A stretch of 32,000 nucleotides of DNA from Oscillospiraceae bacterium (GTDB lineage Bacteria > Bacillota > Clostridia > Oscillospirales > Oscillospiraceae), in assembly GCA_017429835.1 (NCBI GenBank), contig JAFROD010000020.1:27927-59926 (forward strand), read 5' to 3'. The translations under genes and the position numbers were made by a program. The first letter of the stretch is position 1; every line of letters starts with the position of its first letter. The notes beneath the pieces were generated by a model. The model was not told the origin of the DNA. It saw only the letters and a list, made by a program, of their open reading frames with translations, and ran no database searches. Below, one piece after another: positions 27 through 30,250 of this stretch.

Positions 27-59
27 AAAAAAGACGGCTGCATCCGCAGCCGTCTTTTT
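27..59 (-). terminator. Rho-independent terminator directly after the spoVT-type stop codon
   Basis: 9-bp stem GACGGCTGC (33-41) / GCAGCCGTC (46-54) with a 4-nt loop. It is flanked by an A-run (27-32) and a T-run (55-59), so it could act on either strand. Confidence 0.75.
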
Positions 60-511
60 CAGCTTTCCATCTGCTTGCCGAGGAAGCCCGCGACCGTCTG
101 CGCGAGCTTCTGCTCGGACTCGGTCGGCGCGCTGTCGTTTTCGTTCAAAAGCAGCATGACGCAGCCCATGAGATCGCCCTCGGCGATGATCGGCGCGGCG
201 ACGCCGAGATGATACCGCTCGACCGACTCCGCCGCGCGCAGCCGCGTCTCGCCGGCACGATAGCGGTAGCTTTTGCGCTGCTCCATGAGCTGCTCCAGCT
301 CCGCAGAGTTGCGCTTTTCCAACAGATCACGCTTCGGCGCGCCCGCCACGGCGATAATCGAATCCCGATCTGCGACCGCGGCAATGTGCCCCGTATTGCT
401 CCCGATGGACTCGCAGATCTGCGCCGCAAAATCCTGCAGATCACCCATCGGTGAATACTTCTTAAAAATGACCTCCCCGTCCTTCTCCGTATAGATCTCC
501 AACGGGTCACC
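59..511 (-). pseudogene. spoVT: 3' fragment of split spoVT (GAF-like C-terminal domain). The AbrB-type N-terminal part is not in this window.
   Basis: GDPLEIY-DGEVI-KKYSP...AGFLGKQMES closely matches my recollection of B. subtilis SpoVT (REGDPLEIFVDRDGEVILKKYSP...AAGFLARQMEQ). The residues just upstream (VFVANVVSG) do not match SpoVT. Confidence 0.8.
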
Positions 512-2224
512 GCCACTGACAACATTGGCGACGAAAACCTTGTCCGGCGTTTTCTTGGAACGTTGGACAATGCGGCGTCTTAAGCGGTTTCCGGCGCCTG
601 AATTAAAATTTACGGTGTCCTCCAACGCGCTGCAGTGAAGAACTGCATCGATGTCAGCCTGGAATCTGATCTCCAGATGATCTTCAAAGACGAGAATGCG
701 GTCGATGAGCAGTTCGAGGTCGTTGCGATCGAGATTCTCCTTGTTCATGATATCCTCAAACACATCCAGAGCCATTCTTGATGCACGATTGACCTGAATG
801 ACGGTGTTGCGCTTGTCGGACAGCATTCCGATCTGGTGATTGAGACCGTCGATCTTCTTCTGCAGCTCCGCTTCGATTTCTTCGTACATCGGAATGATGG
901 TTTCCTCACGTTCCGGGTACTTCGTGATCTCGCGGATGCGCTGGCGTTTTGTGACCTTCAGTTCTTCCGCCAGCTCGTCACGGACCTCGGCAAGATTATC
1001 GGCGGATTGCTCGGTTTCCACAACCTTCGCTTCGCTTTTTTCAAGATCTTCGTTGATCTTTTTCACCATTTCGCCGCAGTTCTCCGACAGCTTCCGCACG
1101 TAGCGTTTCAGCAGCATGTCCAGCGTTTTTACGTGGATATGATGGCTGGTGCAGCCCTTGCGGCCGCGGCGGTGGTAGGTGCCGCAGGTGTAGGCGGGTT
1201 CGAGGTCGCGGCGGCTCATCGCGAACATCGGACTGCCGCAGTCGCCGCACTCCAGGAAACCGGAGTACACGTTGTCGTTGATCTTCACGCCCCGGTAGTT
1301 GGTGCGCGAACGCTTCTCCCGCAGGGCGCGGGTGATTGCGAAGGTGCGGTAGTCGATAATCGGCTGGTGGTGATTCTCAATGACGATCTGTTCGTCTTCG
1401 TCGCGGCGGACGTCTTTGCCGTTGATCTTGATGCGGGTGTACTTCGCCTGACGGAACGTGCCGATATAAAAGTCGTTATCCAGGATTTCCTGGATGGTCA
1501 CGATCGCCCACGCGGCTTTCGCGCGCGGCTTGACGTCCCTGCCTTCTGCCTCCCTGCGCATCTCCGCCGCCATCCGCGGTGTGGGAATGCCCTCGTCGGT
1601 CAGATAATTTGCGATCCTCTTGTAGCCCCAGCCGTCGTTGTTGTACAACGAGAAGATTTTGCGGACAATCTCTGCCTCCGTGGGGACGATCTCAAACTCT
1701 TTCCGCTTGTTGATGATATAACCGTACGGCGCGGCACAGATCCATTGACCGTCCTGCTGCCGCCGTTTGATGACGTTCCGCACCTTGCGGGACGTGTCGG
1801 TCACGGGCATTTCGTTGACAAGGAACTGGAACTGGATTTTCAGCCAGTCGTCGTCGTTCGGGAAGTCGATGCCGTCGCCGATGGAAATGATGCGGACGCC
1901 GTTGTCGCGCAGGTCTTCCAGTTCGCAAAGACCGCGGCTGTTGCGGCGGGAAAAACGCGAAAAGTCCTTGACGACGAGGATGTCGAATTGCCGGGACATC
2001 AGCCCGCGGCGCATCTCCTGATAGGCCTCGCGCTGTTCGAAGGTGTAGCCGGATCGGTCGCGGTCTTCGAAGAAGGTGAGTCTGCTGCCGGGGAAGGTGC
2101 GTTTTACATAGTCCTGGATGATCGCCTTCTGGTTTTCGATGGAGACGTTCTTTTGATCGAGCTCGTCGTCCACCGAGATACGGGCATAGCCCGCGATGTC
2201 AAATATTTCGTTCGTTGATGTCAC
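59..2224 (-). CDS. Large serine recombinase (resolvase domain, recombinase domain, zinc ribbon, coiled coil), with its reading frame continuing without a stop into the C-terminal ~150 codons of SpoVT
   Basis: N-terminus IAGYARISVDD...ENQ and VKDFSRFSRR match the serine-recombinase catalytic motifs. The zinc ribbon is CGDCGSPM...CGTYHRRGRKGC. The tail from GDPLEIYTEKDGEVIFKKYSP to AGFLGKQMES is SpoVT-like. The GTG start at 2224 abuts AGGAG with no spacer, so the true start is uncertain. Confidence 0.88.
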   Translation of the reverse strand: MTSTNEIFDIAGYARISVDDELDQKNVSIENQKAIIQDYVKRTFPGSRLTFFEDRDRSGYTFEQREAYQEMRRGLMSRQFDILVVKDFSRFSRRNSRGLCELEDLRDNGVRIISIGDGIDFPNDDDWLKIQFQFLVNEMPVTDTSRKVRNVIKRRQQDGQWICAAPYGYIINKRKEFEIVPTEAEIVRKIFSLYNNDGWGYKRIANYLTDEGIPTPRMAAEMRREAEGRDVKPRAKAAWAIVTIQEILDNDFYIGTFRQAKYTRIKINGKDVRRDEDEQIVIENHHQPIIDYRTFAITRALREKRSRTNYRGVKINDNVYSGFLECGDCGSPMFAMSRRDLEPAYTCGTYHRRGRKGCTSHHIHVKTLDMLLKRYVRKLSENCGEMVKKINEDLEKSEAKVVETEQSADNLAEVRDELAEELKVTKRQRIREITKYPEREETIIPMYEEIEAELQKKIDGLNHQIGMLSDKRNTVIQVNRASRMALDVFEDIMNKENLDRNDLELLIDRILVFEDHLEIRFQADIDAVLHCSALEDTVNFNSGAGNRLRRRIVQRSKKTPDKVFVANVVSGGDPLEIYTEKDGEVIFKKYSPMGDLQDFAAQICESIGSNTGHIAAVADRDSIIAVAGAPKRDLLEKRNSAELEQLMEQRKSYRYRAGETRLRAAESVERYHLGVAAPIIAEGDLMGCVMLLLNENDSAPTESEQKLAQTVAGFLGKQMES

Positions 2225-2381
2225 CTCCTGAGTGAAATTTTTATATCTGCGCCGATTTCGCTCTCTACAGATAATATTGTATCACACAAATCAGAGAAAT
2301 GCAAGAGGAATAGTAAAAAACTTACAAGCGCAGCGAATTCTTAGTTTTGTTTTGAGAGAATCAATATTCCAATGTGTTCCG

Positions 2382-5876: not shown

Positions 5877-6137
5877 TCATTGTTCTGCTGCCGAACACTG
5901 CGCTTTTGCGCGTTGGACTTCCTGCTCGGCGAACCGCCACCGGTTTGTGAGGACCAGATCGCGGGTGAGTTCGTACAGGTCGCCCTCGCCGGATTCATAG
6001 ACGACGACAAGGTATTTCTTCGCCTTGTATGCTGTATAGATCGGCTTCAGTCTTTCCCGGAGCGCAGCGTTGCGCTTCTCTGCCTTCGTCAGCCAGATTT
6101 CCACGAGCTTTTCATCGTCCAAAACGTTCATTTCCAT
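5877..6137 (-). CDS. Small hypothetical protein downstream of the relaxase gene
   Basis: 86-aa ORF, 34 nt downstream of the relaxase stop on the same strand. No family recognised. Confidence 0.55.
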   Translation of the reverse strand: MEMNVLDDEKLVEIWLTKAEKRNAALRERLKPIYTAYKAKKYLVVVYESGEGDLYELTRDLVLTNRWRFAEQEVQRAKAQCSAAEQ

Positions 6138-6171
6138 ATGCGACCGTACTCCTTTTCCCTCTCTATTTTCC

Positions 6172-7119
6172 TCATCTTTCCTGCGCTTTATACGCGGCGA
6201 TGCGTTTTGCCGCGATCAGGATCTCGGGCGGGATCGAATCCACGATCAGCCGAAGTTCCTCCAGCTCCTCCTTCCGCTCGGCTTCTTCCAGTCTGCGCGC
6301 GAGACCGCCGCCTTTTGCCTCGGCAAGCTCCTGCTTCAACGACTTCTGCTCCGCGGTCAGATCCTGCAAGGTGATGTTGTACCGGCGCAGCTCCGTCTGC
6401 ATATCCTCCGCGCGGAGGACGTACTTGTTGATCAGTTTCTCTGTTGCCGCAACCGTCTCTTTTTTGTTGAACCAGTTGACGTCGCTCAGAAGCTGCATGA
6501 TTTTCTGCCGCATCGTGTTCAGGTGGATCGCCTCCTTGAACAGCCGCGGCGGAACGTGGGCGCGGCCGGTCTTGCTCGCGCTCTCGCCGCGTTCCAGGTC
6601 GGGGTATTTCTGCACCATCGTCTTCCAGAAGCCGTCCTGCCACCGGGTCAGGTTTTTCCTGTTGCCGATGATCTCTTTTGCGCAGAGCCGCTTGTCTTCC
6701 GTCAGCGGGACAAAACAAAGGTGCATATGGGGCGTTTTCTCGTCCATATGCACCACGGCGGACAGGATCGTCTCTTTCGACTGATTCTTTTCGATGAAGC
6801 GCAGCGCGAGCTCAAAGTATTCTCTGACCTCGGCGGGCTTTTTGCCTTTGAAGAACTCCGGGCTGGCGGTGATGAGCGCTTCGACCACGCGAACGCTGTC
6901 CGAACGGGTGCGGCAGCCGGCTTCGGCGATCTGCCGTTCCGCCTCGGCGCGATAGCTCTGCTTCGGCGTGATCAGATGAATGTTGAGGTGACTGCGGCTT
7001 TTGTCCACGTCGGGATTGCTCGCGTAGGTCTCTTTCGTGCGCTCGTTGTGCGCCTCGATGCGCCCGATCTCCGGGCCTTTGTATTTTGCGAATCGCAGGA
7101 TTCCGTATTGAGGGTTCAT
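6172..7119 (-). CDS. mob: MobV-family (Mob/Pre) relaxase
   Basis: N-terminus ILRFAKYKG...IEAHNERT and the HxDExxPHxH motif (VVHMDEKTPHMHLCFVP). ATG at 7119 is preceded by AAGGAGCA. Confidence 0.88.
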   Translation of the reverse strand: MNPQYGILRFAKYKGPEIGRIEAHNERTKETYASNPDVDKSRSHLNIHLITPKQSYRAEAERQIAEAGCRTRSDSVRVVEALITASPEFFKGKKPAEVREYFELALRFIEKNQSKETILSAVVHMDEKTPHMHLCFVPLTEDKRLCAKEIIGNRKNLTRWQDGFWKTMVQKYPDLERGESASKTGRAHVPPRLFKEAIHLNTMRQKIMQLLSDVNWFNKKETVAATEKLINKYVLRAEDMQTELRRYNITLQDLTAEQKSLKQELAEAKGGGLARRLEEAERKEELEELRLIVDSIPPEILIAAKRIAAYKAQER

Positions 7120-7148
7120 ATTTTGCTCCTTTCTAAGTTTTTGTGCGA

Positions 7149-7541
7149 TCAAACTTCTTTCCTGTCTTCTGCGATGATCTGTCTGACTCGTTCCTGCACC
7201 TGCGCAAGTTGACTGTCTTTCAGCAGCATGTCGACCGCCTCGGCGCGTTCCGATGTCAAGCCGTGGGACAGCATGTCCAGCATGCGCTCAACGGGATCGA
7301 GCAAAATGCAGGCTTCCGCGTAACGATCGTCGGGGATTTCGTCCGGCGAAGACGGCGCATATTTGTGCTTGCGGTTCTGCAAGACCCGCAGATAATCACG
7401 CAGCACGGCTGCGCAGTAACGCTCGTTTTTCTGCTGTGCGGAGTAGCGGCGCAGCGTTGCCAGAAGGGACGGCTTTTCTTCGGCAACGCCGGAGTCAGCC
7501 GCCGGCGTATCTGCGGCTTTGTTTTGATCAATTAGCGGCAT
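7149..7541 (-). CDS. Hypothetical protein upstream of the relaxase in the same operon, possibly a mobilisation accessory protein
   Basis: ATG at 7541 is preceded by AAGGAGGAA. Its stop lies about 30 nt before the relaxase start. Confidence 0.55.
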   Translation of the reverse strand: MPLIDQNKAADTPAADSGVAEEKPSLLATLRRYSAQQKNERYCAAVLRDYLRVLQNRKHKYAPSSPDEIPDDRYAEACILLDPVERMLDMLSHGLTSERAEAVDMLLKDSQLAQVQERVRQIIAEDRKEV

Positions 7542-17740: not shown

Positions 17741-18598
17741 TTAGTCACGTTGCTCACCATTGTTAACACTAATATTGTAACCCGGATGTTCGTTTAATGC
17801 TGTAAAGTATTGTATCATTACATCAATCGGAAAAGGATGCATTTCTTTGGCAGCATCATTTTCATTATCAAACGTCACGATTACTGGCTCCTTGAGTTCT
17901 TGTTCTTTACACAGTCTTTGATAATTTTCATATCCTTTTAGTGCATCATTAAACACAAACTCCAGTGCATGCAAGAATAACGTTTGTATTGCTGCTTGAC
18001 TTTCTCTGATATATGGCCGAAAATCAAAATTGTCTGGAAGAGTCATTATTTCATCCTTCAGTTTGCTCCATCCTTCAAATCTAAGCAATTCGTCTTTAAC
18101 ACACAGCATACTAACGCCGCTTTCCATGGACTGATTAAAAATCGTCAACGGCATACCAAAATGTGTCACATAATTTCGCATTCTTTTACATAGGCGGTAC
18201 CCAAACAATTCATCGTAAAGTTCAGAATCTAATTTTTGGAAACTTGCAAGATCATCTTTTTGATGTTTGGAAATCTCATTTTTTACTACATCAATGAACA
18301 CTGTAATAAAGGAAAGATATGCGATTAGAAGCTTGTTCCCCGTAATCAAGTATGGATCAGATTGAAAACCCTTTTGCTTCTTTAGTAAATCATTTAAAAT
18401 AGAATAGTAGTTTATAAAATCATTTGCGCTTTCATCAACCATTGCTTTTATAATCTTGCATCTTGAATAATATCCCGTAAAGCGAAACCAGTTGAAAAAC
18501 TGATAAAATTCCTCCTCAGAAATCTCGTTCTTTTTCCATAGATTTATCACAATTCCGTCTTTATCTGTACCTAATTCTGTTAGATAGTATTTTCTCAT
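17741..18598 (-). CDS. Hypothetical protein, AT-rich, with a possible HEPN-type Rx4H motif
   Basis: ATG at 18598. The sequence LCKRMRNYVTHFG contains R-N-x-x-x-H, as seen in HEPN/AbiD-F-like proteins. Motif-level evidence only. Confidence 0.6.
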   Translation of the reverse strand: MRKYYLTELGTDKDGIVINLWKKNEISEEEFYQFFNWFRFTGYYSRCKIIKAMVDESANDFINYYSILNDLLKKQKGFQSDPYLITGNKLLIAYLSFITVFIDVVKNEISKHQKDDLASFQKLDSELYDELFGYRLCKRMRNYVTHFGMPLTIFNQSMESGVSMLCVKDELLRFEGWSKLKDEIMTLPDNFDFRPYIRESQAAIQTLFLHALEFVFNDALKGYENYQRLCKEQELKEPVIVTFDNENDAAKEMHPFPIDVMIQYFTALNEHPGYNISVNNGEQRD

Positions 18599-18600
18599 GT

Positions 18601-18756
18601 TTATTGTGCTCCACACATTGTCTTAATATGACGCCCATGAGGAAGAGGCTCTCCATATGACTTCTCGCAAGCATCAATTATGTAGTTTTTTGCCTCTTGG
18701 ATTTGTTCCGAATTTGCAGTTTCATTCCAAATATCGCTGAAAGACAGGCGCTTTTG
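18601..18756 (-). pseudogene. Start-less 3' remnant of a gene formerly upstream of the 17741-18598 gene
   Basis: A 51-codon open frame (..SFSDIWNETANSEQIQEAKNYIIDACEKSYGEPLPHGRHIKTMCGAQ*) runs between an in-frame TAG (18757-18759) and a TAA (18601-18603). It has no canonical start codon, and its stop lies 2 nt before the downstream ATG. Confidence 0.35.
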
Positions 18757-18783
18757 CTATAAACAGCCGCAAACGAAAACTGC

Positions 18784-20922
18784 TCAGATTTCTTCAATCC
18801 CCAAGGATTTCAAATACCGATACGTTCCATCATAGAATTCCGGCAGGCGGGTGCTGTCTTCCCAGAAGCCGCTGGGGGTTTTGTTGGAATTGCCCTCGGG
18901 GACGCAGATCACCATGCCGGCGCGGGCGCGGGTGAGCAGGACGCGGTAGGCGTTCAGCATATACTTCATCTGCTCCTGCTGGTTTTCGGTGTTGCCCAGA
19001 ATCTCGTTCCACTTCGTATTGCCGTTGAAACGATAATAGCGCCATTTGCCGTTCTCATACCGCATATCTGCGTCCCAGAGCAGGCAGGTATAATCGAGCT
19101 CCAAGCCCTGGACCTGTATTTCCGTGGCGGCATCTTCGAGATAGTTGGACGATCGCGTGTCGATCTTATCTTCGAGGAACCAATGGACCGCGTTCTCATC
19201 ACCGGAGGGCAGGATATGTACCGCCAGCGGTTTGTAACGCGCGGACTCTTTCGTCACCAAGACGCCCGTGCGCTCTGTGCCTCGCACTTTGCTATGGAGC
19301 CATCTGCGCGCCTTTGCCATATCTCGCGTAAGCACGATCGGGTACTTGTCTTTGATTTCTTCATAGATCGTCTTTGCGCTTTCATCGAAGGATAGCAAGG
19401 CGTGGACAAACGCGGACAGCTTTTCGGCACGGTAGGAGCGCAAAGAAACGCCTAAGTGCAGGTCTTCTGAATAGGTGACGTTCTGGTTGTTCGCAAGCAG
19501 CTCGTTGACCCGGCCTTCGGCGTATTCCGCCTCGGTCAGCTTGGGCGAAATGTAAACCTTCCAGTGCGAGAATTCCTCGTTGATTGCCTGAATCCACTCG
19601 CTGATTCCGGCCTCGCCGGTGTTGATTTCCTGACCGCCGCCGACCAGACAGATGATCGTCGCCCAGTCTTCGCGCTGATCAAGCGACCAGATCAGGAACG
19701 CCGCTTCGGAAACAGGGAAGTTCGGTACTTTCAGCTTGTTGCCGTATGTTCCGCCACGTTTGAGGTAGTCAGCGAGCCGCTTGTGTGTCCAAGAACGCTG
19801 TGCCTCGTCGAAAATCGCAACATGCTCCACCTCGCCAAAGCCGGCTTCCTCCATTTTGACCGCTTTCGTTGGGTCGATCTCGAGAACGCCGTTTTCAACA
19901 GGGTTCTTGATCTTTGCAAGCATATTGTCACGATAGCGGTGAATCATCTGGATCGATTTGCTCACCTCACGGCGAGAATCGGTCATTTTCTTTTTCTCGC
20001 CATCCTCGCGGCAGCGCTTGTAGTTATCCTGCGCAAGTGCTTCGGTGAGAACAGCAACGAGAGGGCCGTTTCCGGACAGATAAACGGCGCCTTCGTCCTT
20101 CACGGGCTCGGTTTGTCCCTGATAGGTCTGTCGGATCGCCACGTCAAGACCGACAAGCGTTTTCCCTGCGCCGGGAACGCCGGTCACGAAGCAAATGCTC
20201 TTTTCCTGCCGTTCCTTGCTCTGCCGAATTACGTCGAGGATATACGCGATCGTCCGATCAGTGGAAACCTTGTCCGCCTCGTGCCGTGTGATGTTTTCGA
20301 CAGAATGGTTTTCGTACAAAGAGCGCGCAGCTTCGATAATCGTAGGCGTCGGTGCATACGGGCTGATAATCCAGTTGGGATCAACCGGCGTTTCGTTCGG
20401 GAAGCGATTCAGAACGGTGGAAAGCAGATTGAGAATCCCAGACGTGCCGGTCACTAACGGGTTTACCACCTGATCATCATAGACGGACATCTTCACGTCG
20501 GACGATGAACCGCGGTACTCCGTGGCGATGAGAACCGGGACAATGACTTTGTCCTGGCTGAATCTGTGGAAGTTTTTGAGGTCCAGCGCATAATCGAGGA
20601 CCTGATCCACGTCGGCTTCTAGTATAGTTGCCTGTCCGACCTTGAACTCCAAGCAGAAGATAATTCCTCGATAGAGCAGAACGACGTCAATCCGCTTGCC
20701 AAGACGGGGGATATCATACTCGAAAATGATGCGCCCATCCTTGTTGCTCAATAGGGACAAAGCGTCTTTCATTACCGAGATTTCGCCCTTCGACGCCTCT
20801 CTTGTGGTGGTTTTGGCGTCACCGTGGTAACGATCGCACAGCTTGCCGAGGATTGACACGTCTGATTCGTTGAGGAATCCTATAAAGTTGTTGTCATATA
20901 GGCAGCGGGGATTATTTCTCAT
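18784..20922 (-). CDS. DUF2075-type (Schlafen-like) protein: N-terminal PD-(D/E)xK nuclease-like domain plus P-loop ATPase/SF1-like helicase
   Basis: RIDVVLLYRGIIFCLEFKVG (D...ExK), Walker A VTGVPGAGKT, Walker B VAIFDEAQ, and C-terminal NAYRVLLTRARAGMVI (helicase motif VI-like). Confidence 0.78.
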   Translation of the reverse strand: MRNNPRCLYDNNFIGFLNESDVSILGKLCDRYHGDAKTTTREASKGEISVMKDALSLLSNKDGRIIFEYDIPRLGKRIDVVLLYRGIIFCLEFKVGQATILEADVDQVLDYALDLKNFHRFSQDKVIVPVLIATEYRGSSSDVKMSVYDDQVVNPLVTGTSGILNLLSTVLNRFPNETPVDPNWIISPYAPTPTIIEAARSLYENHSVENITRHEADKVSTDRTIAYILDVIRQSKERQEKSICFVTGVPGAGKTLVGLDVAIRQTYQGQTEPVKDEGAVYLSGNGPLVAVLTEALAQDNYKRCREDGEKKKMTDSRREVSKSIQMIHRYRDNMLAKIKNPVENGVLEIDPTKAVKMEEAGFGEVEHVAIFDEAQRSWTHKRLADYLKRGGTYGNKLKVPNFPVSEAAFLIWSLDQREDWATIICLVGGGQEINTGEAGISEWIQAINEEFSHWKVYISPKLTEAEYAEGRVNELLANNQNVTYSEDLHLGVSLRSYRAEKLSAFVHALLSFDESAKTIYEEIKDKYPIVLTRDMAKARRWLHSKVRGTERTGVLVTKESARYKPLAVHILPSGDENAVHWFLEDKIDTRSSNYLEDAATEIQVQGLELDYTCLLWDADMRYENGKWRYYRFNGNTKWNEILGNTENQQEQMKYMLNAYRVLLTRARAGMVICVPEGNSNKTPSGFWEDSTRLPEFYDGTYRYLKSLGIEEI

Positions 20923-20997
20923 AATGATGGTTCCCTTCGTTGAGTGTAATTTGCTGTCTATTTTGCACGTAACGGTGGTTGTGCCGAACGCTTCAAA

Positions 20998-22143
20998 CTA
21001 CGTATCCTTCCTGAGAATATCCAAATACTCATCATAGGTAAATACGAGCGATTTTCCGGATTTGGCGGAGTATTGCAGAATGCCCTTGTCGCGGAGGATC
21101 GTAATATAATTTGCTGTGCCATTTCTGGAAAAGCCGAGCGCAGCTGCTGTTTTGACCGTTTCGATGATTGGGTTTCGCTCGATATAGGCGAACAGATCCA
21201 GGATACGCTGGCGTGAACGGGTCGGAACATCTGCCAGCTTTGCTTCGTTCTTCTGGTGCAGCGCATTCAGACGGTCAATGGTTTCCGTGGCATCTTCGGC
21301 AGTTTCGGCGATTCCACGCAGGAAGAATTTAACCCATTGCTCGTAATTGCCGCTCTTGCGGATCTCGCTCATTCTGTCATAATACTCGATCCGGTTCAAC
21401 TTCAGATAGCAAGACAGATACAACACAGGAGAGGATAATACATTCGCTCCCATCAGGAACAAGGTGATCAACAGCCTGCCGACACGCCCGTTGCCGTCAA
21501 GGAAGGGATGGATCGTTTCAAACTGATAGTGAAGCAGTGCTGCTTTTATCAGTGGATCCATCGCATCGGCATCATTCATGAATCTTTCAAAGTCCGCCAT
21601 ACACTCGGCCATATCCTGCGGATTGGGCGGAATATAGCGGGCATTTTTCAGCGTGCTACCGGGAGGGCCGATCCAGTTCTGCGATACACGGAATTCTCCT
21701 GGCGTTTTATCACTGCCGCGAACGCTGCGCATCAACACTTCGTGTGTTTCCCGGATCAGCCGGTTGCACAAAGGGAGCTCCTTCAGCCGCTGAATGGCAA
21801 AATTGATCGCGCGGACATAATTCACGACATCGGAAACATCGGCGTTTGCATTCTCGTCGATCTCCGGGTCCAGTACATCTTCCAGCGTGCATTGCGTTCC
21901 TTCGATCTGTGAGGAGACCAGCGCTTCCTTCCGGACGTACATGGAGATAAACAGATCCTTATTCGGAATGCGGTCAGATAAGCCGTTGAGCAGCGACAGC
22001 TTCTTGTGCGCGTCGATCAGAAGCTGCTGCATCTCGGTATCAATTTCAAAACTCGGCTCCGGTGGCAGCGGCTGTGGATAGAATGAAGTATACTGCAGTT
22101 CGCCGCTGAGGTTCTGCACCGTTGTTCCCGCACGATTCTTCAT
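20998..22143 (-). CDS. Fic-family protein (AMPylase-type) with a probable C-terminal winged-helix domain
   Basis: Canonical Fic motif HPFLDGNGRVGRLL. The N-terminal region is Fic_N-like. RBS GGAGG lies upstream of ATG 22143. Confidence 0.88.
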   Translation of the reverse strand: MKNRAGTTVQNLSGELQYTSFYPQPLPPEPSFEIDTEMQQLLIDAHKKLSLLNGLSDRIPNKDLFISMYVRKEALVSSQIEGTQCTLEDVLDPEIDENANADVSDVVNYVRAINFAIQRLKELPLCNRLIRETHEVLMRSVRGSDKTPGEFRVSQNWIGPPGSTLKNARYIPPNPQDMAECMADFERFMNDADAMDPLIKAALLHYQFETIHPFLDGNGRVGRLLITLFLMGANVLSSPVLYLSCYLKLNRIEYYDRMSEIRKSGNYEQWVKFFLRGIAETAEDATETIDRLNALHQKNEAKLADVPTRSRQRILDLFAYIERNPIIETVKTAAALGFSRNGTANYITILRDKGILQYSAKSGKSLVFTYDEYLDILRKDT

Positions 22144-22175
22144 TGCGAAACCTCCAATTTGCGTTTTCTACCGGT

Positions 22176-22204
22176 AGTATAGCATAGAAAACGCACAAAA
22201 TCAA
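22176..22204 (-). promoter_or_regulatory. Promoter of the Fic gene, overlapped by an inverted-repeat operator
   Basis: Minus strand TTGATT (22204-22199), 17-nt spacer, TATACT (22181-22176). The inverted repeat GCGTTTTCTA (22161-22170) / TAGAAAACGC (22185-22194) brackets the -10 element. Confidence 0.55.
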
Positions 22205-22218
22205 TAGTTTGTGAGTTT
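22185..22218. repeat. 34-bp direct repeat, copy 1 (operator-like)
   Basis: TAGAAAACGCACAAAATCAATAGTTTGTGAGTTT. Confidence 0.8.
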
Positions 22219-22235
22219 TCCAAAGATAATTGTTT

Positions 22236-22269
22236 TAGAAAACGCAAAAAATCGACAGTTTGTGAGTTT
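22236..22269. repeat. 34-bp direct repeat, copy 2
   Basis: TAGAAAACGCAAAAAATCGACAGTTTGTGAGTTT, identical to copy 1 at 30 of 34 positions and 51 bp away. Confidence 0.8.
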
Positions 22270-22286
22270 GCCTAAAGCGGACAGAA

Positions 22287-22323
22287 AAGAGCGTTTCTTT
22301 CCGAGGAAAGAAGCGCTCTTTTT
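22287..22323 (+). terminator. Orphan terminator-like hairpin. Copy B of the sequence at 17663-17698.
   Basis: AAGAGCGTTTCTTTCC-ga-GGAAAGAAGCGCTCTT followed by TTT. No plus-strand gene ends upstream of it. The flank ATATAGAGA is shared with copy A. Confidence 0.6.
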
Positions 22324-22579
22324 GGGATATAGAGATAGAAACTTGTGATAAATCCGGAGAGCTATCATATCGTCAATGTACTGTTTTTCGCCCCAATGTA
22401 CTGTTCTTTCAGCTCACCGCTGATGTGCATCGTCCGGTCTGCATGCAGCGCAGAAATAAGCAGCACTAATTTTTCTGGAGAAGATGCGGCTCAAAAATTA
22501 GCGTTGCTAATTTTTCGGCAGATGCGGCAGATAGTTTACTTGAATTCTGATGAATCAGAAATATAACATCACATTGACA

Positions 22580-22677
22580 AAAGGGGATAAAAAAGGGGGT
22601 ATAAAATGGGGTATAAAAAGGAGTATAAAAAGGGGTATAAAAAGAGGGATAATACGGCGCATAAAAGGGCTGGAAAA
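22580..22677. repeat. Eight tandem iteron-like units of 12-13 bp
   Basis: AAAGGGGATAAAA AAGGGGGTATAAA ATGGGGTATAAA AAGGAGTATAAA AAGGGGTATAAA AAGAGGGATAAT ACGGCGCATAAA AGGGCTGGAAAA. Confidence 0.85.
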
Positions 22678-22730
22678 ACGATGCGGGGGGAATACTGCCG
22701 CAGCTTGCAATCAATGATTGCGCGTTTCGG

Positions 22731-22759
22731 TTGCGTTTCGGCGGCTTCGGCGGTATAAT
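22731..22759 (+). promoter_or_regulatory. Strong sigma-A-type promoter at the head of the cassette array
   Basis: TTGCGT (22731-22736), 17-nt spacer, TATAAT (22754-22759), about 70 nt upstream of the first cassette start. Confidence 0.65.
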
Positions 22760-22780
22760 CAGTACAGAGCGAACGCTTCG

Positions 22781-22819
22781 CAGAGGAAAAGCATCCCGGC
22801 AAATCGGGGTTTGAGGAGG
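22781..22819 (+). repeat. Cassette-junction repeat R0 (shortened; right half conserved)
   Basis: CAGAGGAAAAGCATCCCGGCAAATCGGGGTTTGAGGAGG. Confidence 0.7.
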
Positions 22820-22827
22820 AAATGAAA

Positions 22828-23700
22828 ATGCAATACGAAATCATGCCCTGTGTAGACGGCGATGCGGAATACATCGAAGAACAGGCGGATCAGGCGACAA
22901 ACGCCATCGCACCGCCGGTGGAAGGCGCGCAGGAAGAGGTGTTCATTTATCAAGTCACAGACACGGACGGACGTTTTCTGGGCGGGTGTATTCTGGTTAC
23001 AGAAGAATGGAAGACCGCGATCATCGTTGACCTGTGGGTGGAAGAAGCCTATCGTCATCAGGGAATCGCCTCCGCGCTGATCCGGGAATCCGAGCGGAAA
23101 GCCCGGGAAATGGGATGCTATCTTATGCTGATCGGCACCTTCGATTTTCAGGCGAAGCCCCTCTATGACAAACATGGCTATGCGCTGATCGAAACCATGA
23201 CGGATTATCCAAAGGGGCATGAACACTATTTCTTACAGAAGCGGCTTGACCGTCCTGACGGCGAAGCCGCCCCATCCGATCTCGGCAGTTACAAGATTAC
23301 CCTTGCGGGGGAAGAAATCGCAGAAAAGCTCTCTGCCAGGCTGAATCGGCATGACGAAGCCTGTGTTCCGCGGGAACACCCTTACATCTCCATTTGCAAA
23401 AAGGCAATCGACGAGAATGGGAAACTCATCGCCGGGATCGTAGGAGGCGTGGATGGATGGGATAATCCGGATATCGATGCGCTTTGGGTGGACGAAGCCT
23501 GCCGCAAGCAAGGGATCGCTTCCGCGCTTCTCCGTGCGTTCGAGCGGGAGGCAAAGGGAAACGGCGCCTACAGGCTGGCTATTGAGCCGTTCGATTGGAA
23601 CGTCGGTTTTTTCAGGAAGAATGGGTACGAAACAGTCACTGGCGTGCTGGAGGATTATCCGAAAGGGCATACCATGTACTGCATGGAGAAGCCTCTTTGA
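22828..23700 (+). CDS. Tandem-domain GNAT acetyltransferase (cassette 1)
   Basis: Two GNAT cores: VEEAYRHQGIASALI and VDEACRKQGIASALL. ATG 22828 lies 8 nt after GGAGG. The alternative ATG at 22822 lies only 2 nt after it. Confidence 0.8.
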   Translation: MQYEIMPCVDGDAEYIEEQADQATNAIAPPVEGAQEEVFIYQVTDTDGRFLGGCILVTEEWKTAIIVDLWVEEAYRHQGIASALIRESERKAREMGCYLMLIGTFDFQAKPLYDKHGYALIETMTDYPKGHEHYFLQKRLDRPDGEAAPSDLGSYKITLAGEEIAEKLSARLNRHDEACVPREHPYISICKKAIDENGKLIAGIVGGVDGWDNPDIDALWVDEACRKQGIASALLRAFEREAKGNGAYRLAIEPFDWNVGFFRKNGYETVTGVLEDYPKGHTMYCMEKPL

Positions 23701-23712
23701 CTGGCCCACTGA

Positions 23713-23776
23713 CAAATTCCGGTTTGCGGAGACAGGCAAATCATAAACGATCCCGGCAAATCGGGATTTGCGGAGG
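23713..23776 (+). repeat. Cassette-junction repeat R1
   Basis: CAAATTCCGGTTTGCGGAGACAGGCAAATCATAAACGATCCCGGCAAATCGGGATTTGCGGAGG. Confidence 0.9.
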
Positions 23777-23782
23777 CAAAAA

Positions 23783-24703
23783 GTGCAGAAACGAATACGC
23801 ATAATCACAGGATTTCTTGCTGGTGTAATAGTTATTTCGCTGGCAGCTTGTTCTGCAAGCAAAGAGGAATCAATGTTCGACAAGATCAAAGAGAGTCAAG
23901 CTGCAAAGATGGAATCAGATGAAGCGACGCTGTCTGATCTCCCGGTGTACAGTTACACCTGGAGGATGGCAGAAGCCCTCGATGATTCATCTTATGATGA
24001 ATACATGCATGATGACGGCCAGCGGTTTCATAGTCTTATGTCATTTTCTGAAAAGTTGCGGTCCTCGGAAGAACTTACATTTACACCTTATACAAGCAAT
24101 CTGGTGGAGCTACTCAATCTCACGATTCCGGATCAATGCATGGTAAACTACGGAACAGAGTTCGCCGGAGAGTCTGTTTATGAAATAGAGGGCGAACCTG
24201 CGGTAGCGGCAGAGGCTGTACAGGTGACAGAAAACTTCTTTGATCTGTTTCCTTTGCAGGTTGCAGAAGGTCGTGGATTCACCGACGATGATTATGACTA
24301 CCTGGGTAAAGGGAGGATTCCTGTAATTCTCGGAACGACATACAAAGAAACATTTTCAATTGGTGATACGTTTGAAGGATATTACATTTTTGAACGTTTC
24401 ACCTTTGAAGTAATAGGTTTTGCGGAAGGCGGAAGAGTTTTTTACAGCAGCGGCGACCGTATGCCTGTATCATACGATCGTTATATCATTATGCCTTTTG
24501 CTTCCATTTACGAAGATTCTGAAATCAGCCGGATCATACTACTGCAGCAAATCTGTGGATTGATTACAGATGGGGACGGAAGACAGGAAGCGCTGAATCA
24601 AGTTAATGAATTGCTCGCAGAAACCGGTCTGAAGGATTGGATTGGTCAAATCTATATTACGGACGACAGCTTAAGGACGATGATTCAGTATTACTTGAAC
24701 TAA
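23783..24703 (+). CDS. Lipoprotein with a MacB/FtsX-type periplasmic-domain-like region (cassette 2)
   Basis: GTG 23783 lies 6 nt after GGAGG. The signal peptide is QKRIRIITGFLAGVIVISLAAC. VTENFFDLFPLQVAEGRGFTDDD resembles the extracytoplasmic domain of MacB-like permeases. Confidence 0.65.
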   Translation: MQKRIRIITGFLAGVIVISLAACSASKEESMFDKIKESQAAKMESDEATLSDLPVYSYTWRMAEALDDSSYDEYMHDDGQRFHSLMSFSEKLRSSEELTFTPYTSNLVELLNLTIPDQCMVNYGTEFAGESVYEIEGEPAVAAEAVQVTENFFDLFPLQVAEGRGFTDDDYDYLGKGRIPVILGTTYKETFSIGDTFEGYYIFERFTFEVIGFAEGGRVFYSSGDRMPVSYDRYIIMPFASIYEDSEISRIILLQQICGLITDGDGRQEALNQVNELLAETGLKDWIGQIYITDDSLRTMIQYYLN

Positions 24704-24730
24704 CCTTCTCAAACAATCTCGGATGTTTAA

Positions 24731-24794
24731 CAAATTCTGGTTTGCGGAGGCAGCAAATCATAAACGATCCCGGCAGATCGGGATTTGAGGAAGG
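24731..24794 (+). repeat. Cassette-junction repeat R2
   Basis: CAAATTCTGGTTTGCGGAGGCAGCAAATCATAAACGATCCCGGCAGATCGGGATTTGAGGAAGG. Confidence 0.9.
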
Positions 24795-24799
24795 ACGTT

Positions 24800-25024
24800 A
24801 TGAACGAAAATAAGAATAACAAGAACGGCAAGAAAGGCAATAATTCATCCGGCCTTGCGATTGGTATGTGTATTGGAATTTCGATCGGGACAGCTATCGG
24901 AGCGGCAACGCACAATATCGGATTGTGGATGCCCATCGGACTTTCTGTTGGGTTGTGTCTCGGTATGGTGTTGGGACATAACAGTGAAGATGATAACGAG
25001 GATGGCACGGACGATAAGCAATAG
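24800..25024 (+). CDS. Small glycine-zipper membrane protein (cassette 3)
   Basis: 74 aa. The sequence GLAIGMCIGISIGTAIGAATHNIGLWMPIGLSVGLCLGMVLG forms two hydrophobic Gly-rich helices. Confidence 0.6.
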   Translation: MNENKNNKNGKKGNNSSGLAIGMCIGISIGTAIGAATHNIGLWMPIGLSVGLCLGMVLGHNSEDDNEDGTDDKQ

Positions 25025-25029
25025 GCATA

Positions 25030-25085
25030 CAAATTCCTGTTTGTCGAAGCAAAAAACGATCCCGGCAAATCGGAATTTACGGAGG
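25030..25085 (+). repeat. Cassette-junction repeat R3 (8-nt internal deletion, more diverged)
   Basis: CAAATTCCTGTTTGTCGAAGCAAAAAACGATCCCGGCAAATCGGAATTTACGGAGG. Confidence 0.85.
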
Positions 25086-25093
25086 AATATATT

Positions 25094-25708
25094 ATGACAG
25101 AAAAAGAAAAAATGCAAAAGAAGATGCTCTATGACGCAAATTACGACGAATCGCTTCTAAAAGAAAGAAACATAGCAAAAGATCTTTGCTATGAGTATAA
25201 TCAACTCCGACCGTCCGATGAACTGCATCAACAGGAGATTATGAAAAAGCTTCTCGGCAAAACCAAAGGAGCGTTTACCATCGTCGCTCCGTTTTGGTGC
25301 GATTACGGTTATAATATCGAAATAGGAGAAAATTTTTTTGCTAACCACAACACTATTATTCTTGACGGTGGGAAGGTGGTTTTTGGAGATAATGTTTTTA
25401 TTGCTCCGGACTGTGGCTTTCACACAGCAGGACATCCTATTGATTTTGAGAGAAGGAATCAAGGATTGGAATATGCCTATCCCATTACTGTCGGGGATAA
25501 TGTGTGGATTGGCGCAGGTGTTCAAGTAATGCCCGGCGTGACCATAGGAAGCAATGTTGTTATTGGCGGCGGCAGCGTGGTTGTTAAAGACATTCCTAAT
25601 AATTCAGTCGCTGTTGGTAATCCTTGCAAAGTGATTCGAGAAATCACGGAAGCGGATAAACTTAAATGCTGGGATAAATTCCGGTTTACAGAGGCAGGCA
25701 AATCATAA
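25094..25708 (+). CDS. Maltose/galactoside-type sugar O-acetyltransferase, left-handed beta-helix (cassette 4)
   Basis: N-terminal Mac-domain-like MLYDANYDESLLKERNIAKDLCYEYNQLRP. Hexapeptide repeats are VWIGAGVQVMPGVTIGSNVVIGGGSVVVKDIP. The stop TAA lies inside repeat R4. Confidence 0.85.
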   Translation: MTEKEKMQKKMLYDANYDESLLKERNIAKDLCYEYNQLRPSDELHQQEIMKKLLGKTKGAFTIVAPFWCDYGYNIEIGENFFANHNTIILDGGKVVFGDNVFIAPDCGFHTAGHPIDFERRNQGLEYAYPITVGDNVWIGAGVQVMPGVTIGSNVVIGGGSVVVKDIPNNSVAVGNPCKVIREITEADKLKCWDKFRFTEAGKS

Positions 25709-25737
25709 ACGATCCCGGCAAATCGTGATTGCGGAGG
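25675..25737 (+). repeat. Cassette-junction repeat R4
   Basis: TAAATTCCGGTTTACAGAGGCAGGCAAATCATAAACGATCCCGGCAAATCGTGATTGCGGAGG. Confidence 0.9.
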
Positions 25738-25742
25738 GGAGT

Positions 25743-26285
25743 ATGACAGAGATATCACTTTTGCAACTGGAATTGCTTTTTGCGCTTATCTGGCTTGCAT
25801 GCAGAATCGTTGTTTGGATAAGAAAACGGAGGATAGATTGGAAGCGGGAAGCCGTTCTCCTTCTGATGTTTGTTAATCTTGCGGTCATCATTCGGTTTGT
25901 TTTCTTTCCGATGTCCCGCGTTAACGGGAAGGTTCAGTCGCTAAGGTTCGACCCCGCTGCAGTCTTTCCTTTCAAGCTCAACCTGCTTCCTTTTGTGCAT
26001 CTGTTAGAGTATGACAGTAAAAAAGAAATGCTTCTCAACGTAATAGGAAATACGGCGATGTTCATCCCAACCGGTGTCATTCTTCCGATCATCTCTAAAA
26101 AGCTGAAAACATTTTGGAGGGTCATAGGTGTTGGCGCGCTGATTTCGCTATGCATAGAGATTATCCAACTTCCTTTCTTTGAAAGGACTTCGGATATCGA
26201 CGATCTGCTCCTTAACACGCTCGGTGTCGCGATCGGCTATTTGATTTATAAACTCGTGCTTAAACTGATTAAAAGAAGACGATAA
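25743..26285 (+). CDS. VanZ-family membrane protein (cassette 5)
   Basis: Four or five transmembrane helices. NVIGNTAMFIPTGVILP and DIDDLLLNTLGVAIGY are typical VanZ-like signatures. The stop TAA is the first three nt of R5. Confidence 0.78.
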   Translation: MTEISLLQLELLFALIWLACRIVVWIRKRRIDWKREAVLLLMFVNLAVIIRFVFFPMSRVNGKVQSLRFDPAAVFPFKLNLLPFVHLLEYDSKKEMLLNVIGNTAMFIPTGVILPIISKKLKTFWRVIGVGALISLCIEIIQLPFFERTSDIDDLLLNTLGVAIGYLIYKLVLKLIKRRR

Positions 26286-26346
26286 ATTCCAGCTTACAGA
26301 GGCAGGCAAATCATAAACGATCCCGGCAAATCGATATTTGTAGAGG
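26283..26346 (+). repeat. Cassette-junction repeat R5
   Basis: TAAATTCCAGCTTACAGAGGCAGGCAAATCATAAACGATCCCGGCAAATCGATATTTGTAGAGG. Confidence 0.9.
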
Positions 26347-26356
26347 TAATACGGAT

Positions 26357-26815
26357 ATGAAAATCAAACTGGAACCGATTAACGATACTAATCGCGAGGC
26401 TGTGCTGGCGCTAACTGTGCGTGAAGATCAGCTATTTGTCGCGCCGAACGATTATTCATTAAGCGAGGCCGATGAGGCCAATGCCAACGCGCCCGGCACG
26501 GCGAGGCCGTTTGCGATCTATGCGGGCGAAAAGATTGTCGGCTTCTGTATGCTCGCCCTGGACCCCGAGGATGAGAATCCTGTTGACAGATACTGTCTCT
26601 GGCGTTTTATGATCGACAAAAACGAACAGGGCAAGGGCTACGGTCAGGCGGCGCTTCATGAGATCATCAAGTATTTCAAAGAGAACGGTGTGGACACGAT
26701 CTATCTGTCGACTGCACCTGAGAACGAGGTCGGATTGCACGTGTACCATAAGGCGGGCTTTAAGGAAACAGGAGAGATGGAAGACGGAGAAGCTATTTTT
26801 GTTTTGACACTCTAA
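26357..26815 (+). CDS. GNAT-family N-acetyltransferase (cassette 6)
   Basis: FMIDKNEQGKGYGQAAL is the Q/RxxGxG motif. 152 aa. The stop TAA is the first three nt of R6. Confidence 0.8.
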   Translation: MKIKLEPINDTNREAVLALTVREDQLFVAPNDYSLSEADEANANAPGTARPFAIYAGEKIVGFCMLALDPEDENPVDRYCLWRFMIDKNEQGKGYGQAALHEIIKYFKENGVDTIYLSTAPENEVGLHVYHKAGFKETGEMEDGEAIFVLTL

Positions 26816-26875
26816 ATTCCGGTTTACAGAGGCAGGCAAATCATAAACGATCCCGGCAAATCGGGATTGCGGAGG
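26813..26875 (+). repeat. Cassette-junction repeat R6
   Basis: TAAATTCCGGTTTACAGAGGCAGGCAAATCATAAACGATCCCGGCAAATCGGGATTGCGGAGG. Confidence 0.9.
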
Positions 26876-26883
26876 TAAAGAAA

Positions 26884-28040: not shown

Positions 28041-28055
28041 AAAATTCCGGTTTAT
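28041..28055 (+). repeat. Cassette-junction repeat R7 (left end only; marks the end of the array)
   Basis: AAAATTCCGGTTTAT lies immediately after the stop codon. Similarity to the consensus ends after about 15 nt. Confidence 0.6.
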
Positions 28056-28478
28056 CTATCCGATTCTCTGAAAACCCTTGATTTTCCTGCATTTTCCGCA
28101 GGACTGCTACCATAAAAAGCTCCGTTTTCCCTTGTTTTTGCCCTTATGGGGCAAAACAAGGGAAAGTGTATTACATGACGAATACACTTCCAAGGCCTCG
28201 CCGTATGAGAGCGAAATACACGTCTCGCACAAAGCCGTGCTTTATACAAGGGGTATTTCGCCTTACTTCCAAAACCGCTTGAAAAAGAGAGCATCCGAAA
28301 GAAGCTCCGTGACATGGAAGCGGAGGCCAAGCGCCGGAATGATACACGGCGGCAGCAGACCCGACCTCGCAGCCACGATTATGACAGAGGACGCTAAAAC
28401 AGAAGAAAACACCGCAGGAGGTCCCTGCGGTGCCTACATAGAAACGCCCTGCAAGTTTGCGGCTTGCAGGGCGTACAA

Positions 28479-29015: not shown

Positions 29016-29136
29016 TTTGCTCGCTCCAATTGATTTTTGACGTTTCTGGTGTTATGATTGTTACGCCGAAACAAATGACACATCTATACTACCACATAGA
29101 TGCCTTGGTTGTCAATACCTTGAGGAGGAAATGAGA

Positions 29137-30241: not shown

Positions 30242-30250
30242 GGGAAGAGA

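Follow-up and report, generated by a model that had tools for sequence, protein, structure and literature searches.

A large serine recombinase island inserted in spoVT of Oscillospiraceae, with a candidate forespore-expressed directionality factor

We have analyzed a stretch of 32,000 nucleotides (hereafter the window) from contig JAFROD010000020.1 of an Oscillospiraceae bacterium (assembly GCA_017429835.1), near the start of which a single open reading frame (ORF) joins a large serine recombinase (LSR) to the C-terminal part of SpoVT. In Bacillus subtilis, spoVT codes for a sigma-G-dependent regulator of the forespore. Our analysis indicates that this ORF is almost certainly the right junction (attR) of an LSR island of ~38.3 kb inserted in codons 31-33 of spoVT, with the attachment site of the island (attP) located inside the LSR gene and both junctions being in-frame chimeras. 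We lean, with much less assurance, towards a fuller explanation in which this island structure is combined with excision in the forespore.

The two junctions of the island

The initial annotation had described the frame of 721 codons as a complete LSR followed by the C-terminal part of SpoVT up to its own stop and terminator, and the Pfam, TIGR02851 and 2w1t matches and the terminator hairpin all agree with that description. The features of this junction are the following:

59..2224, minus strand: LSR::SpoVT chimeric ORF (attR), 721 codons with a GTG start, LSR aa 1-571 in frame with SpoVT aa 31-180
512..2224, minus strand: island-derived LSR part, with resolvase, recombinase and zinc-ribbon domains and a long coiled-coil/DUF4368-like region; the native last 24 codons are missing
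59..511, minus strand: host spoVT codons 31-180 and stop (3' half of the split gene), 93.6% nucleotide and 99.3% amino acid identity to the intact spoVT of locus L060
27..60, minus strand: spoVT intrinsic terminator, hairpin and T-run, stem core 54-33

The LSR part contains the catalytic motifs YARISVD and DFSRFSRR together with Resolvase (PF00239; aa 10-161, 5.9e-20, model positions 1-145 of 145), Recombinase (PF07508; aa 181-305 of the chimera, 6e-24) and Zn_ribbon_recom (PF13408; aa 320-376, 1.5e-11) domains, and its best match among solved recombinases is SprA, the SPbeta integrase (9dxh; aa 7-419, 4.5e-20). Further on, Pfam SpoVT_C covers aa 595-720 (model 1-128 of 128, 1.1e-41), and aa 569-720 align both with model positions 27-180 of 180 of NCBIfam spore_V_T (TIGR02851) and with residues 28-177 of the B. 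subtilis SpoVT structure 2w1t (1e-27). The TIGR02851 score (145.8 bits) is under the 235.9-bit cut-off, the N-terminal AbrB-type DNA-binding part being incomplete. Similarity to SpoVT starts sharply at G572 (GDPLEIY), whose first base is position 511 of the window, an abrupt onset already noticed in the initial annotation and confirmed here by alignment. After the stop codon the spoVT terminator forms a 15-bp stem (-24.3 kcal/mol, z = -5.2), a hairpin that the automatic terminator scan did not call. The identical 721-aa product is coded by 9 contigs, which come from several samples of ENA and Logan, indicating that the chimeric ORF is no mis-assembly.

The C-terminal 150 aa are host SpoVT and not a native domain of the recombinase. 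The uninterrupted spoVT of L060, from the same genus, codes for a protein 99.3% identical to the SpoVT part of the window (1 non-synonymous and 28 synonymous changes), and the gene order downstream matches that of the window strain at 89-93% nucleotide identity. Fused and intact versions in other related genomes are comparably close (L025 and L071, 99.3%; L036 and L094, 96.7%). Over the family, identity to the window is 41-91% in the SpoVT part, tracking the host, and 58-77% in the recombinase part; in at least 29 other fused genomes the SpoVT part tracks the host and not the recombinase. On these figures the doubt raised in the initial annotation, that the last 150 aa might belong to the recombinase family, falls away. 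A fusion native to the family, to which the four-domain architecture shared by all the best 120 homologues of the LSR part (76-97% identity, SpoVT_C included) might point, is excluded because the two parts evolve independently, a relative has an empty site and the complementary junction exists. The phylogeny of the SpoVT part is that of the hosts, and intact SpoVT proteins of related hosts are 96-99% identical to it; the left junction (attL) with the complementary half occurs in three genomes, attP-configured copies of the LSR finish in a short tail and, in Angelakisella, an unfused homologue adjoins an intact spoVT. Neither a native domain without integration nor an assembly artefact, with the identical ORF on 9 independent contigs, keeps any appreciable probability, and both were ruled out. 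The fused ORF is the structural outcome of integration, since an attP inside the LSR gene gives in-frame chimeras.

The spoVT 5' half (first 30 residues) was absent from the whole 32-kb window by regular expression and tblastn, as were the P' arm and the conserved tail peptide described below; a weak P'-arm/tail match at ~17.3 kb was merely the ribosome-binding site and ATG of a 73-aa gene. The search for this half proposed in the initial annotation succeeded 6.85 kb past the window end, where contig L104 carries the spoVT 5' part, MKATGIVRRIDDLGRVVIPKEIRRTLRIREGDP, in the same orientation. L104 overlaps the last 2,981 nt of the window (29020-32000) at 99.93% and was reached via a 252-aa ORF near the window end (ORFs of 306 and 187 aa were not on record). 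There, MKATGIVRRIDDLGRVVIPKEIRRTLRIREGDP is joined to the LSR tail HLTTLKNAEIFRFSLLDLAKREGW and a stop codon, forming a 57-aa ORF, SpoVT(1-33) plus 24 aa, still located behind the spoVT promoter. The crossover lies at ~38,847 in window-equivalent coordinates, giving an island of ~38.34 kb, and with attL at ~38.85 kb the window from 512 to 32000 is entirely island interior. An island end at ~10.86 kb, where similarity to L016 stops, was rejected on the position of attL and on the cargo block shared with L106. In the corresponding metagenome-assembled genome (MAG) at NCBI, both junction proteins are on one 93.6-kb contig, 36 protein accessions apart. The same arrangement was found in the L030 MAG, where spoVT codons 1-33 are located 8,046 bp upstream of the fusion and are followed by 24 foreign codons (SQISLTRWEKFCVGMFNLAKRRGW and stop), attL and attR having the common core GGCGACCCG, and in L016 and L106, which give both junctions of a sister island of ~32 kb. 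The integration of an element in spoVT, claimed in the initial annotation, is borne out by the host-like SpoVT part and by the finding of both junctions. The attachment sites are:

503..511, minus strand: recombination core GGTGACCCG, common to attR (window), attL (L104) and attB (L060)
516..527, minus strand: P-arm 12-bp repeat CAATGTTGTCAG, 7 bp from the central GA, with a perfect inverted copy 7 bp beyond the GA in attL
L104:9921-9823, same strand as the fusion: spoVT codons 1-33 (5' half), attL
attR junction sequence: ...GTCAGTGGCGGTGACCCGTTGGAGATC
attL junction sequence: ...CGCGAGGGAGACCCGCACCTGACAAC
repaired attB sequence: CGCGAGGG(A/T)GACCCGTTGGAGATC
attP sequence: GTCAGTGGCGGTGACCCGCACCTGACAAC

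The comparison with an uninterrupted relative, also suggested at the outset, provided attB from L060, which shares the core. All three sites contain GG(N)GACCCG, placing the insertion in spoVT codons 31-33 (GGN GAC CCG). We infer a crossover at the GA dinucleotide at 508-507, the exact centre of the attP dyad. The reconstructed attP consists of CAATGTTGTCAG, 7 bp, GA, 7 bp and CTGACAACATTG, a perfect 12-bp inverted repeat. Both arms share a lineage-specific base (GTTGTC, versus GTTATC in other elements), which argues that the att sites are maintained. When attL and attR are joined in silico at the core, a 180-aa SpoVT results, 1 aa of which differs from L060 in the C-terminal 150.

A search with the L030 attL product retrieved more than 120 clusters of proteins of 57-97 aa, each consisting of SpoVT(1-33) and a tail; one such product was present on 402 contigs. 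The tails vary at many positions but share the motif GDPSQ.(S/T)L..(W/S)E.(F/Y)C.(G/A)M.(D/N)LAKR.GW, a conservation at the protein level which indicates that the LSR really ends in this tail and that its gene extends across attP to encode it. Besides, two metagenome contigs hold a related LSR in attP configuration, ending in the short tail. The idea of an attP inside the integrase gene, put forward in the initial annotation, thus gains support from both L030 junctions, the two attP-configured contigs and the more than 120 attL-product clusters, and with attP so placed integration exchanges the LSR C-terminus for the SpoVT C-terminal domain. We also considered that the island might bring a replacement SpoVT_C to keep spoVT intact, and discarded this since the attL products end after a tail of 24-27 aa. 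The family illustrates how the C-terminus of a natural integrase can depend on the integration state, and supplies, ready for use, diverged LSR/att pairs with a defined attP of 40 bp.

A scan of species-representative genomes detected the fusion in Faecousia, Agathobaculum, Butyricicoccus and many Oscillospiraceae. There are also cultured carriers, namely Agathobaculum hominis M2 (L034) and Oscillospiraceae bacterium CM710M_45 (L031). We counted 34 fused loci, and every complete fused junction examined reads ...V.VIS[DNGS] followed immediately by GDPLEI[YF]; the loci that depart from it are L049 (a different ORF), L050 (truncated) and L053 (an unfused LSR by an intact spoVT). In L049 (9956-13384) the P arm AATGTTATCAGTGAC is joined at GGCGAC, in frame, to an unrelated ORF (frame of 1142 codons), an apparent insertion at a secondary site. 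This junction and the attP-configured contigs fit a mobile integrase crossing over at GA. In the Butyricicoccus trio the recombinase is less diverged than the host. Together with the MobV relaxase and the TnpV-family gene described below, the secondary insertion and the Butyricicoccus divergence indicate that the island is integrative and mobilizable. Apparently this is a large and so far undescribed island family, common in gut Clostridia and Oscillospiraceae; in the literature we found no paper linking spoVT with an intervening or mobile element.

A candidate directionality factor and possible excision from spoVT

Besides the LSR, the constant backbone of these islands includes a small orphan ORF:

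5877..6137, minus strand: orf86, conserved 86-aa orphan ORF
6164..6193, minus strand: sigmaF/sigmaG-like (forespore-type) promoter of orf86, GTATA, 15 nt, GAGGAAAATA

It was found in 39 distinct members of the family, with W15, L16, Y42, V44, S49, G50, L54, L61 and N65 invariant. At 51-60 nt upstream of its start codon there is a two-box motif, of which the boxes are conserved and the spacer is free in sequence. A strict pattern, G[TCA]ATA-N13-16-GNN[AG]A[AT]A[AC]TA, taken from mapped sigmaF/sigmaG promoters of Clostridioides difficile (Table S6, PMC3789822), was present in 30 of the 39 orf86 upstream windows, and in the window studied here the orf86 promoter is its sole match on both strands. 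Over all the fetched loci (2.83 Mb, both strands) the pattern occurred 40 times, and the matches other than orf86 sites (counting among the latter a truncated remnant in L071) were 4 host spoVT promoters and 5 unrelated ones. By analogy with the skin element of C. difficile (skinCd), orf86 is a candidate recombination directionality factor (RDF).

Split after codon 33, within the AbrB-type DNA-binding domain, spoVT should be non-functional in the integrated state. In C. difficile, a spoVT mutant produces no heat-resistant spores, and spoVT depends on both sigmaF and sigmaG (PMC3789822). Recombination of attL with attR at the central GA would be conservative, excising a circle and rebuilding an intact spoVT of 180 aa and a native LSR gene of 598 aa, and the LSR rebuilt on the circle could re-integrate the island. 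The most likely trigger would be orf86, acting as directionality factor from its sigmaF/sigmaG-type promoter, so that excision would take place in the forespore, the compartment that needs spoVT. The logic of skinCd, a constitutive LSR with a small RDF under a sporulation sigma factor, would then be shifted from the mother cell to the forespore. We put forward orf86 as a forespore-expressed RDF with developmental excision tentatively, as a serious candidate that we would stop short of asserting. Of the functional possibilities listed in the initial annotation (loss of functional SpoVT, excision in the forespore, a functional chimera), the conserved promoter and small ORF speak for the second, as support and not as proof.

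A credible though less favoured alternative is that the disruption is passive: a mobilizable defence island would have an integrase that happens to target spoVT, its carriers would be spoVT-null, with defective sporulation or altered spores, orf86 and its promoter would serve another purpose, and an intact spoVT would come back only when the LSR sporadically excises the island or the population loses it. Relatives with intact spoVT (L060, L061) alongside carriers (the window strain, L016) fit frequent gain and loss, and the Butyricicoccus recombinases, less diverged than their hosts, and the relaxase genes point to horizontal spread, under which an intact SpoVT_C may just be the mark of an insertion of recent date. 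The decayed remnant L014, in which the LSR is truncated and the spoVT 5' half is missing nearby, and the non-canonical start codon and raised dN/dS (omega) of the LSR in the present copy, also go in this direction, and no repaired form of this strain is on record. On the other side, passive disruption leaves unexplained why ~30 of 39 elements, diverged as they are, have kept a promoter of the forespore class ahead of the small conserved ORF, and why SpoVT_C is intact in 34 of 34 fused loci, with neither frameshift nor stop and with omega values (0.06-0.13) that are not raised over those of intact spoVT (0.05-0.11). Also hard to reconcile with it, the island is very common in spore-forming gut Clostridia, yet C. 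difficile cannot form heat-resistant spores without spoVT.

Several observations weigh against developmental excision. The strict promoter pattern owes part of its form to our having already seen the motif, and for this reason we built an independent two-block position weight matrix (PWM) from the mapped C. difficile sigmaF/G promoters alone (Table S6, PMC3789822). Its median scores, which speak for the forespore reading, were 9.2 for the orf86 windows, 6.3 for the host spoVT promoters and -0.1 for random windows (95th percentile 7.1, 99th 10.2), by which the orf86 promoter is at least as forespore-like as the host spoVT promoter; the site in the window itself scored 8.8, with a modest empirical tail probability of 0.02. 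The sigma factor is, in any case, predicted from sequence alone. orf86 had no Pfam, NCBIfam or PHROG match and no recognisable family, and its single-sequence AF2 model was unusable (predicted local distance difference test score, 51). The present copy shows signs of relaxed constraint: the LSR omega between the window and L016 is 0.21, versus 0.017-0.10 in 21 other close pairs, the codon at the usual LSR start position is ACG, and in the tail an R replaces the conserved Cys of the family, kept in the closest relatives. Neither the repaired SpoVT nor the native LSR expected for this strain had an exact counterpart in a collection of 15 billion proteins, a weak negative as it covers exact matches only. 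Several carrier genera are described as non-sporulating. To our knowledge there is no known cycle of forespore excision and re-integration, without which the island would leave the germ line.

The start of the LSR gene in this copy deserves some detail:

2213..2228, minus strand: LSR translation start region, Shine-Dalgarno GGAGG overlapping the GTG, with ACG in the canonical start position
2276..2304, minus strand: sigmaA-like promoter candidate of the LSR, TTGCAT, 17 nt, TG-n-TACAAT (TGaTACAAT)

In relatives the LSR starts with M-T-E-x-FDIAGY at an ATG, GTG or TTG located 6-9 nt past the Shine-Dalgarno sequence; this codon is ACG in the window and in L016, its closest relative, which leaves the GTG inside the Shine-Dalgarno as the sole canonical start codon. 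The initial annotation had remarked that the GTG directly abuts the Shine-Dalgarno sequence. It in fact overlaps it, and comparison with the relatives moves the canonical start position to the ACG, so that the remark is refined and not confirmed. In the NCBI annotation of what is apparently the same MAG, the LSR begins six codons later (MFDIAGY). Two islands share the ACG, and both their hosts, the window strain and L016, stand closer to a relative in which spoVT is intact (L060 and L061), from which it follows that an LSR with the ACG start integrated or excised after the ACG arose. The LSR start is weak, not dead, and the att arms, the catalytic motifs, orf86 and the orf86 promoter are all intact in this copy. 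The extended -10 of the LSR promoter is also present in several relatives. The -10 region (2276-2290, TGATACAATATTATC; ACAATGTTATCA in L052) resembles the att-arm repeat CAATGTTGTCAG/CAATGTTATCAG, a likeness from which a recombinase-binding site overlapping the LSR's own promoter may be predicted.

Developmental excision could go further and be a programmed, reversible rearrangement of the germ line, an extension we consider rather unlikely. The sigmaF/sigmaG-driven orf86 and the chimeric LSR would excise the island just when SpoVT is needed; the circle, although non-replicating, would not be lost because the forespore no longer divides; and at germination, with orf86 gone, the native LSR would put the island back into spoVT. 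The directionality switch would include the state-dependent C-terminus (SpoVT_C or native tail), and the 57-aa SpoVT(1-33)-tail peptide could provide the missing tail in trans.

A functional chimera, in which the GAF-like SpoVT_C replaces the LSR tail in the integrated state and alters the activity, perhaps as a built-in directionality or sensor module, appears improbable to us. In one variant the enzyme of the integrated state would be competent for excision and the native-tail enzyme coded by the circle would integrate. All members of the family have the C-terminal swap, always in frame, yet a conserved in-frame fusion needs no selection, being automatic once attP is in the LSR frame and attB in the spoVT frame. 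The conservation of the native tail at the protein level indicates that the C-terminus matters to the enzyme, and the engineered SPbeta integrase-RDF fusion of structure 9dxd shows that a C-terminal fusion can be tolerated; against this, the SpoVT part follows the host, with no element-specific changes, and the secondary insertion of L049 fuses the LSR to an unrelated protein. In the window/L016 pair SpoVT_C has an omega of 0.057 although the LSR is relaxed, a purifying selection equally explained by the role of this part in a rebuilt spoVT.

Two outcomes can be envisaged. One is that a substantial fraction of the gut "spore-formers" harbour a mobile element that switches spore maturation off, which bears on their transmission and on culturing by spore selection. 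The other is a programmed rearrangement, which would take place in the cell that gives rise to the next generation and would represent a new principle both for endospore development and for the control of directionality in serine integrases.

Backbone, cargo and departing loci

The backbone of the family is constant (LSR, orf86 and often a MobV relaxase and TnpV) and the cargo is variable, mostly defence genes. In the present island an XRE/RstR-like repressor and a sigma-70-family factor also count as backbone. In the window we have identified:

6172..7152, minus strand: MobV-family relaxase (Mob_Pre; NF041497, 3.6e-47)
8888-9688, plus strand: XRE/RstR-like repressor
9663-10301, plus strand: sigma-70-family factor
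11119-15201, plus strand: cas9, 1360 aa
15198-15689, plus strand: cas1 fragment, 163 aa, running into the array
15664-16359, plus strand: CRISPR array, 11 repeats of 36 nt (GTTTGAGAGTAGTGTAATTCYGTAGAGGTCTAAAAC) with 30-nt spacers
17741..32000: further cargo (SLFN-like helicase, Fic, acetyltransferases, MacB_PCD, VanZ, TetR, hydrolases)

A PIN_12 protein is also among the cargo of this island, and past the window end, near attL, there is a TnpV-family gene (PF14198). The type II CRISPR-Cas locus (11119-16359) is without cas2 and csn2 and has no Rfam match for a tracrRNA; from its gene content it looks like an interference-only locus. Rfam gave no match anywhere in the window. The cargo order 173-aa protein, Hexapep transferase, MacB_PCD and Fic is the same in the 32-kb sister island of L106, and the cargo of other relatives includes type I and type III restriction-modification, McrBC, Abi, HipA and DpnII. 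The family offers a hotspot carrying defence systems, among them a Cas9 locus without adaptation genes. A phage origin was discarded, as there were no relatives in IMG/VR and no PHROG match for orf86.

The islands share segments of different degrees of similarity. The sigma/XRE module (window 8756-10833) is 95% identical to L016, and the LSR and Mob genes 87-88%. An LRR_5/SLH gene by attL (L104:10030-11222) is 95.9% identical to a segment within the L016 island (L016:4504-5698), far above the host divergence (dS, synonymous divergence, of 0.7-1.1 in the flanks). These values point to mosaic exchange between islands. The backbone common with L016 ends at two direct repeats of 36 nt (CCCCGCCAACGAAAC.GGTGTTTCTTTGGA.TCTTC; window 10687-10833), 111 nt apart, and no tandem repeats were found at 10-11.2 kb.

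In Angelakisella massiliensis Marseille-P3217 (L053:9995-12400), a 581-aa LSR homologue with its own stop and without the P-arm peptide is located 120 nt upstream of an intact spoVT of 179 aa, beside the target and not inside it. L014 (10001-10735; P0045) is a decayed copy in which the last ~95 LSR codons are fused to an intact SpoVT_C, near a glycosyltransferase cluster, with no spoVT 5' half within 10 kb. L015 (5072-10675) and L073, with the proteins P0002 and P0043, belong to a second, unrelated family with three tandem serine recombinases inserted at spoVT codon 10/11, the sequence after the junction reading DDLGRVVIP. One of the five unrelated matches of the strict promoter pattern (L015, 4650) precedes a small DUF6870 ORF upstream of the three recombinases of this family, and L073 has no match. 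L071 (1300-1700) has, 1.3 kb ahead of an intact spoVT, a fossil made up of a truncated orf86 and its promoter, the junction of the second family, spoVT codons 11-33 and the P' arm and tail of the first, suggesting that both families once occupied one spoVT copy.

At the outer side of attL, L096, L097 and L100 (9800-10000) have identical attL sequences, and just ~85-115 nt upstream of the spoVT start (the promoter) are conserved; farther upstream the genomes have nothing in common, one showing LysR/TetR genes where others have a type I-C CRISPR-Cas locus or a transporter. A second hotspot of variable content thus seems to be located upstream of spoVT. At the opposite end, the assemblies of L017, L026, L029, L032, L037 and L044 break 0.5-1.2 kb upstream of the LSR start, which suggests repeated or strain-variable sequence just inside the right end of the island.

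Comparison with known systems

The closest parallel is skinCd of C. difficile (LSR CD1231, RDF CD1234, in sigK), for which experiments have shown an LSR expressed in every cell from a sigmaA promoter and an orphan RDF of 72 aa whose dependence on sigmaE restricts excision to the mother cell (PMC5025042). In both cases an LSR element splits a sporulation regulator gene that precise excision would restore, the promoter in front of the recombinase gene (a candidate in the spoVT island) is of vegetative type, and a small orphan protein (72 aa in skinCd, 86 aa in the spoVT island) is located behind a sporulation-sigma promoter. They differ in that the target of skinCd belongs to the mother cell, with the RDF promoter depending on sigmaE/SpoIIID, whereas the spoVT island has a forespore target and a sigmaF/sigmaG-like promoter. 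The attP inside the LSR gene, with both junctions as in-frame chimeras, and the relaxase and defence cargo are likewise particular to the spoVT island; the RDF role of orf86 is putative, and the two LSRs are distantly related.

Serine recombinase elements that split sporulation genes are also found in Bacilli, namely SPbeta (SprA-SprB) in spsM, skinBs, vfbin, vrin and gin (in gerE). The described intervening elements interrupt mother-cell genes and their excision is confined to the terminally differentiated mother cell, the spore keeping the element (PMC4191935), so that excision is harmless to inheritance because the mother cell dies. Unlike them, the spoVT family, abundant in gut Oscillospiraceae, splits a key regulator of the forespore, that is, of the germ line; the host spoVT promoters among the fetched loci match the forespore pattern, and the target is thus not a mother-cell gene.

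The mobilisable transposons Tn4451/Tn4453 (TnpX, TnpZ, TnpV) resemble the spoVT island in having an LSR at one end, a Mob/Pre-type relaxase and a TnpV-family gene, in the crossover at a central GA (which we infer for the spoVT island from the dyad symmetry) and in a circular intermediate that reorganises the recombinase gene (predicted for the spoVT island). The joint of the Tn4451 circle creates a promoter for tnpX, whereas that of the spoVT island would restore a C-terminus and not a promoter. The spoVT-island LSR is, moreover, less than 30% identical to annotated plasmid LSRs, with the N-terminal domain alone matching TnpX (2mhc, 1.5e-7), and the spoVT family has essentially one target site, lengths of 8-38 kb and defence cargo.

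Two further systems share single traits with the island. In myxophage Mx8, integration changes the 3' end of the integrase gene intP and the integrase of the prophage has a different C-terminus; Mx8 Int, however, is a tyrosine recombinase targeting tRNA genes, whereas the spoVT island has a serine recombinase that gains a folded host domain of 150 aa. Active lysogeny (Listeria phi10403S in comK, SpyCIM1 in mutL) is a precedent in concept, as reversible excision in propagating cells restores the host gene and the element is kept. Those are phages or phage-like elements with no tie to sporulation, unlike the spoVT island, which is inserted in a sporulation gene and whose reversibility is hypothetical.

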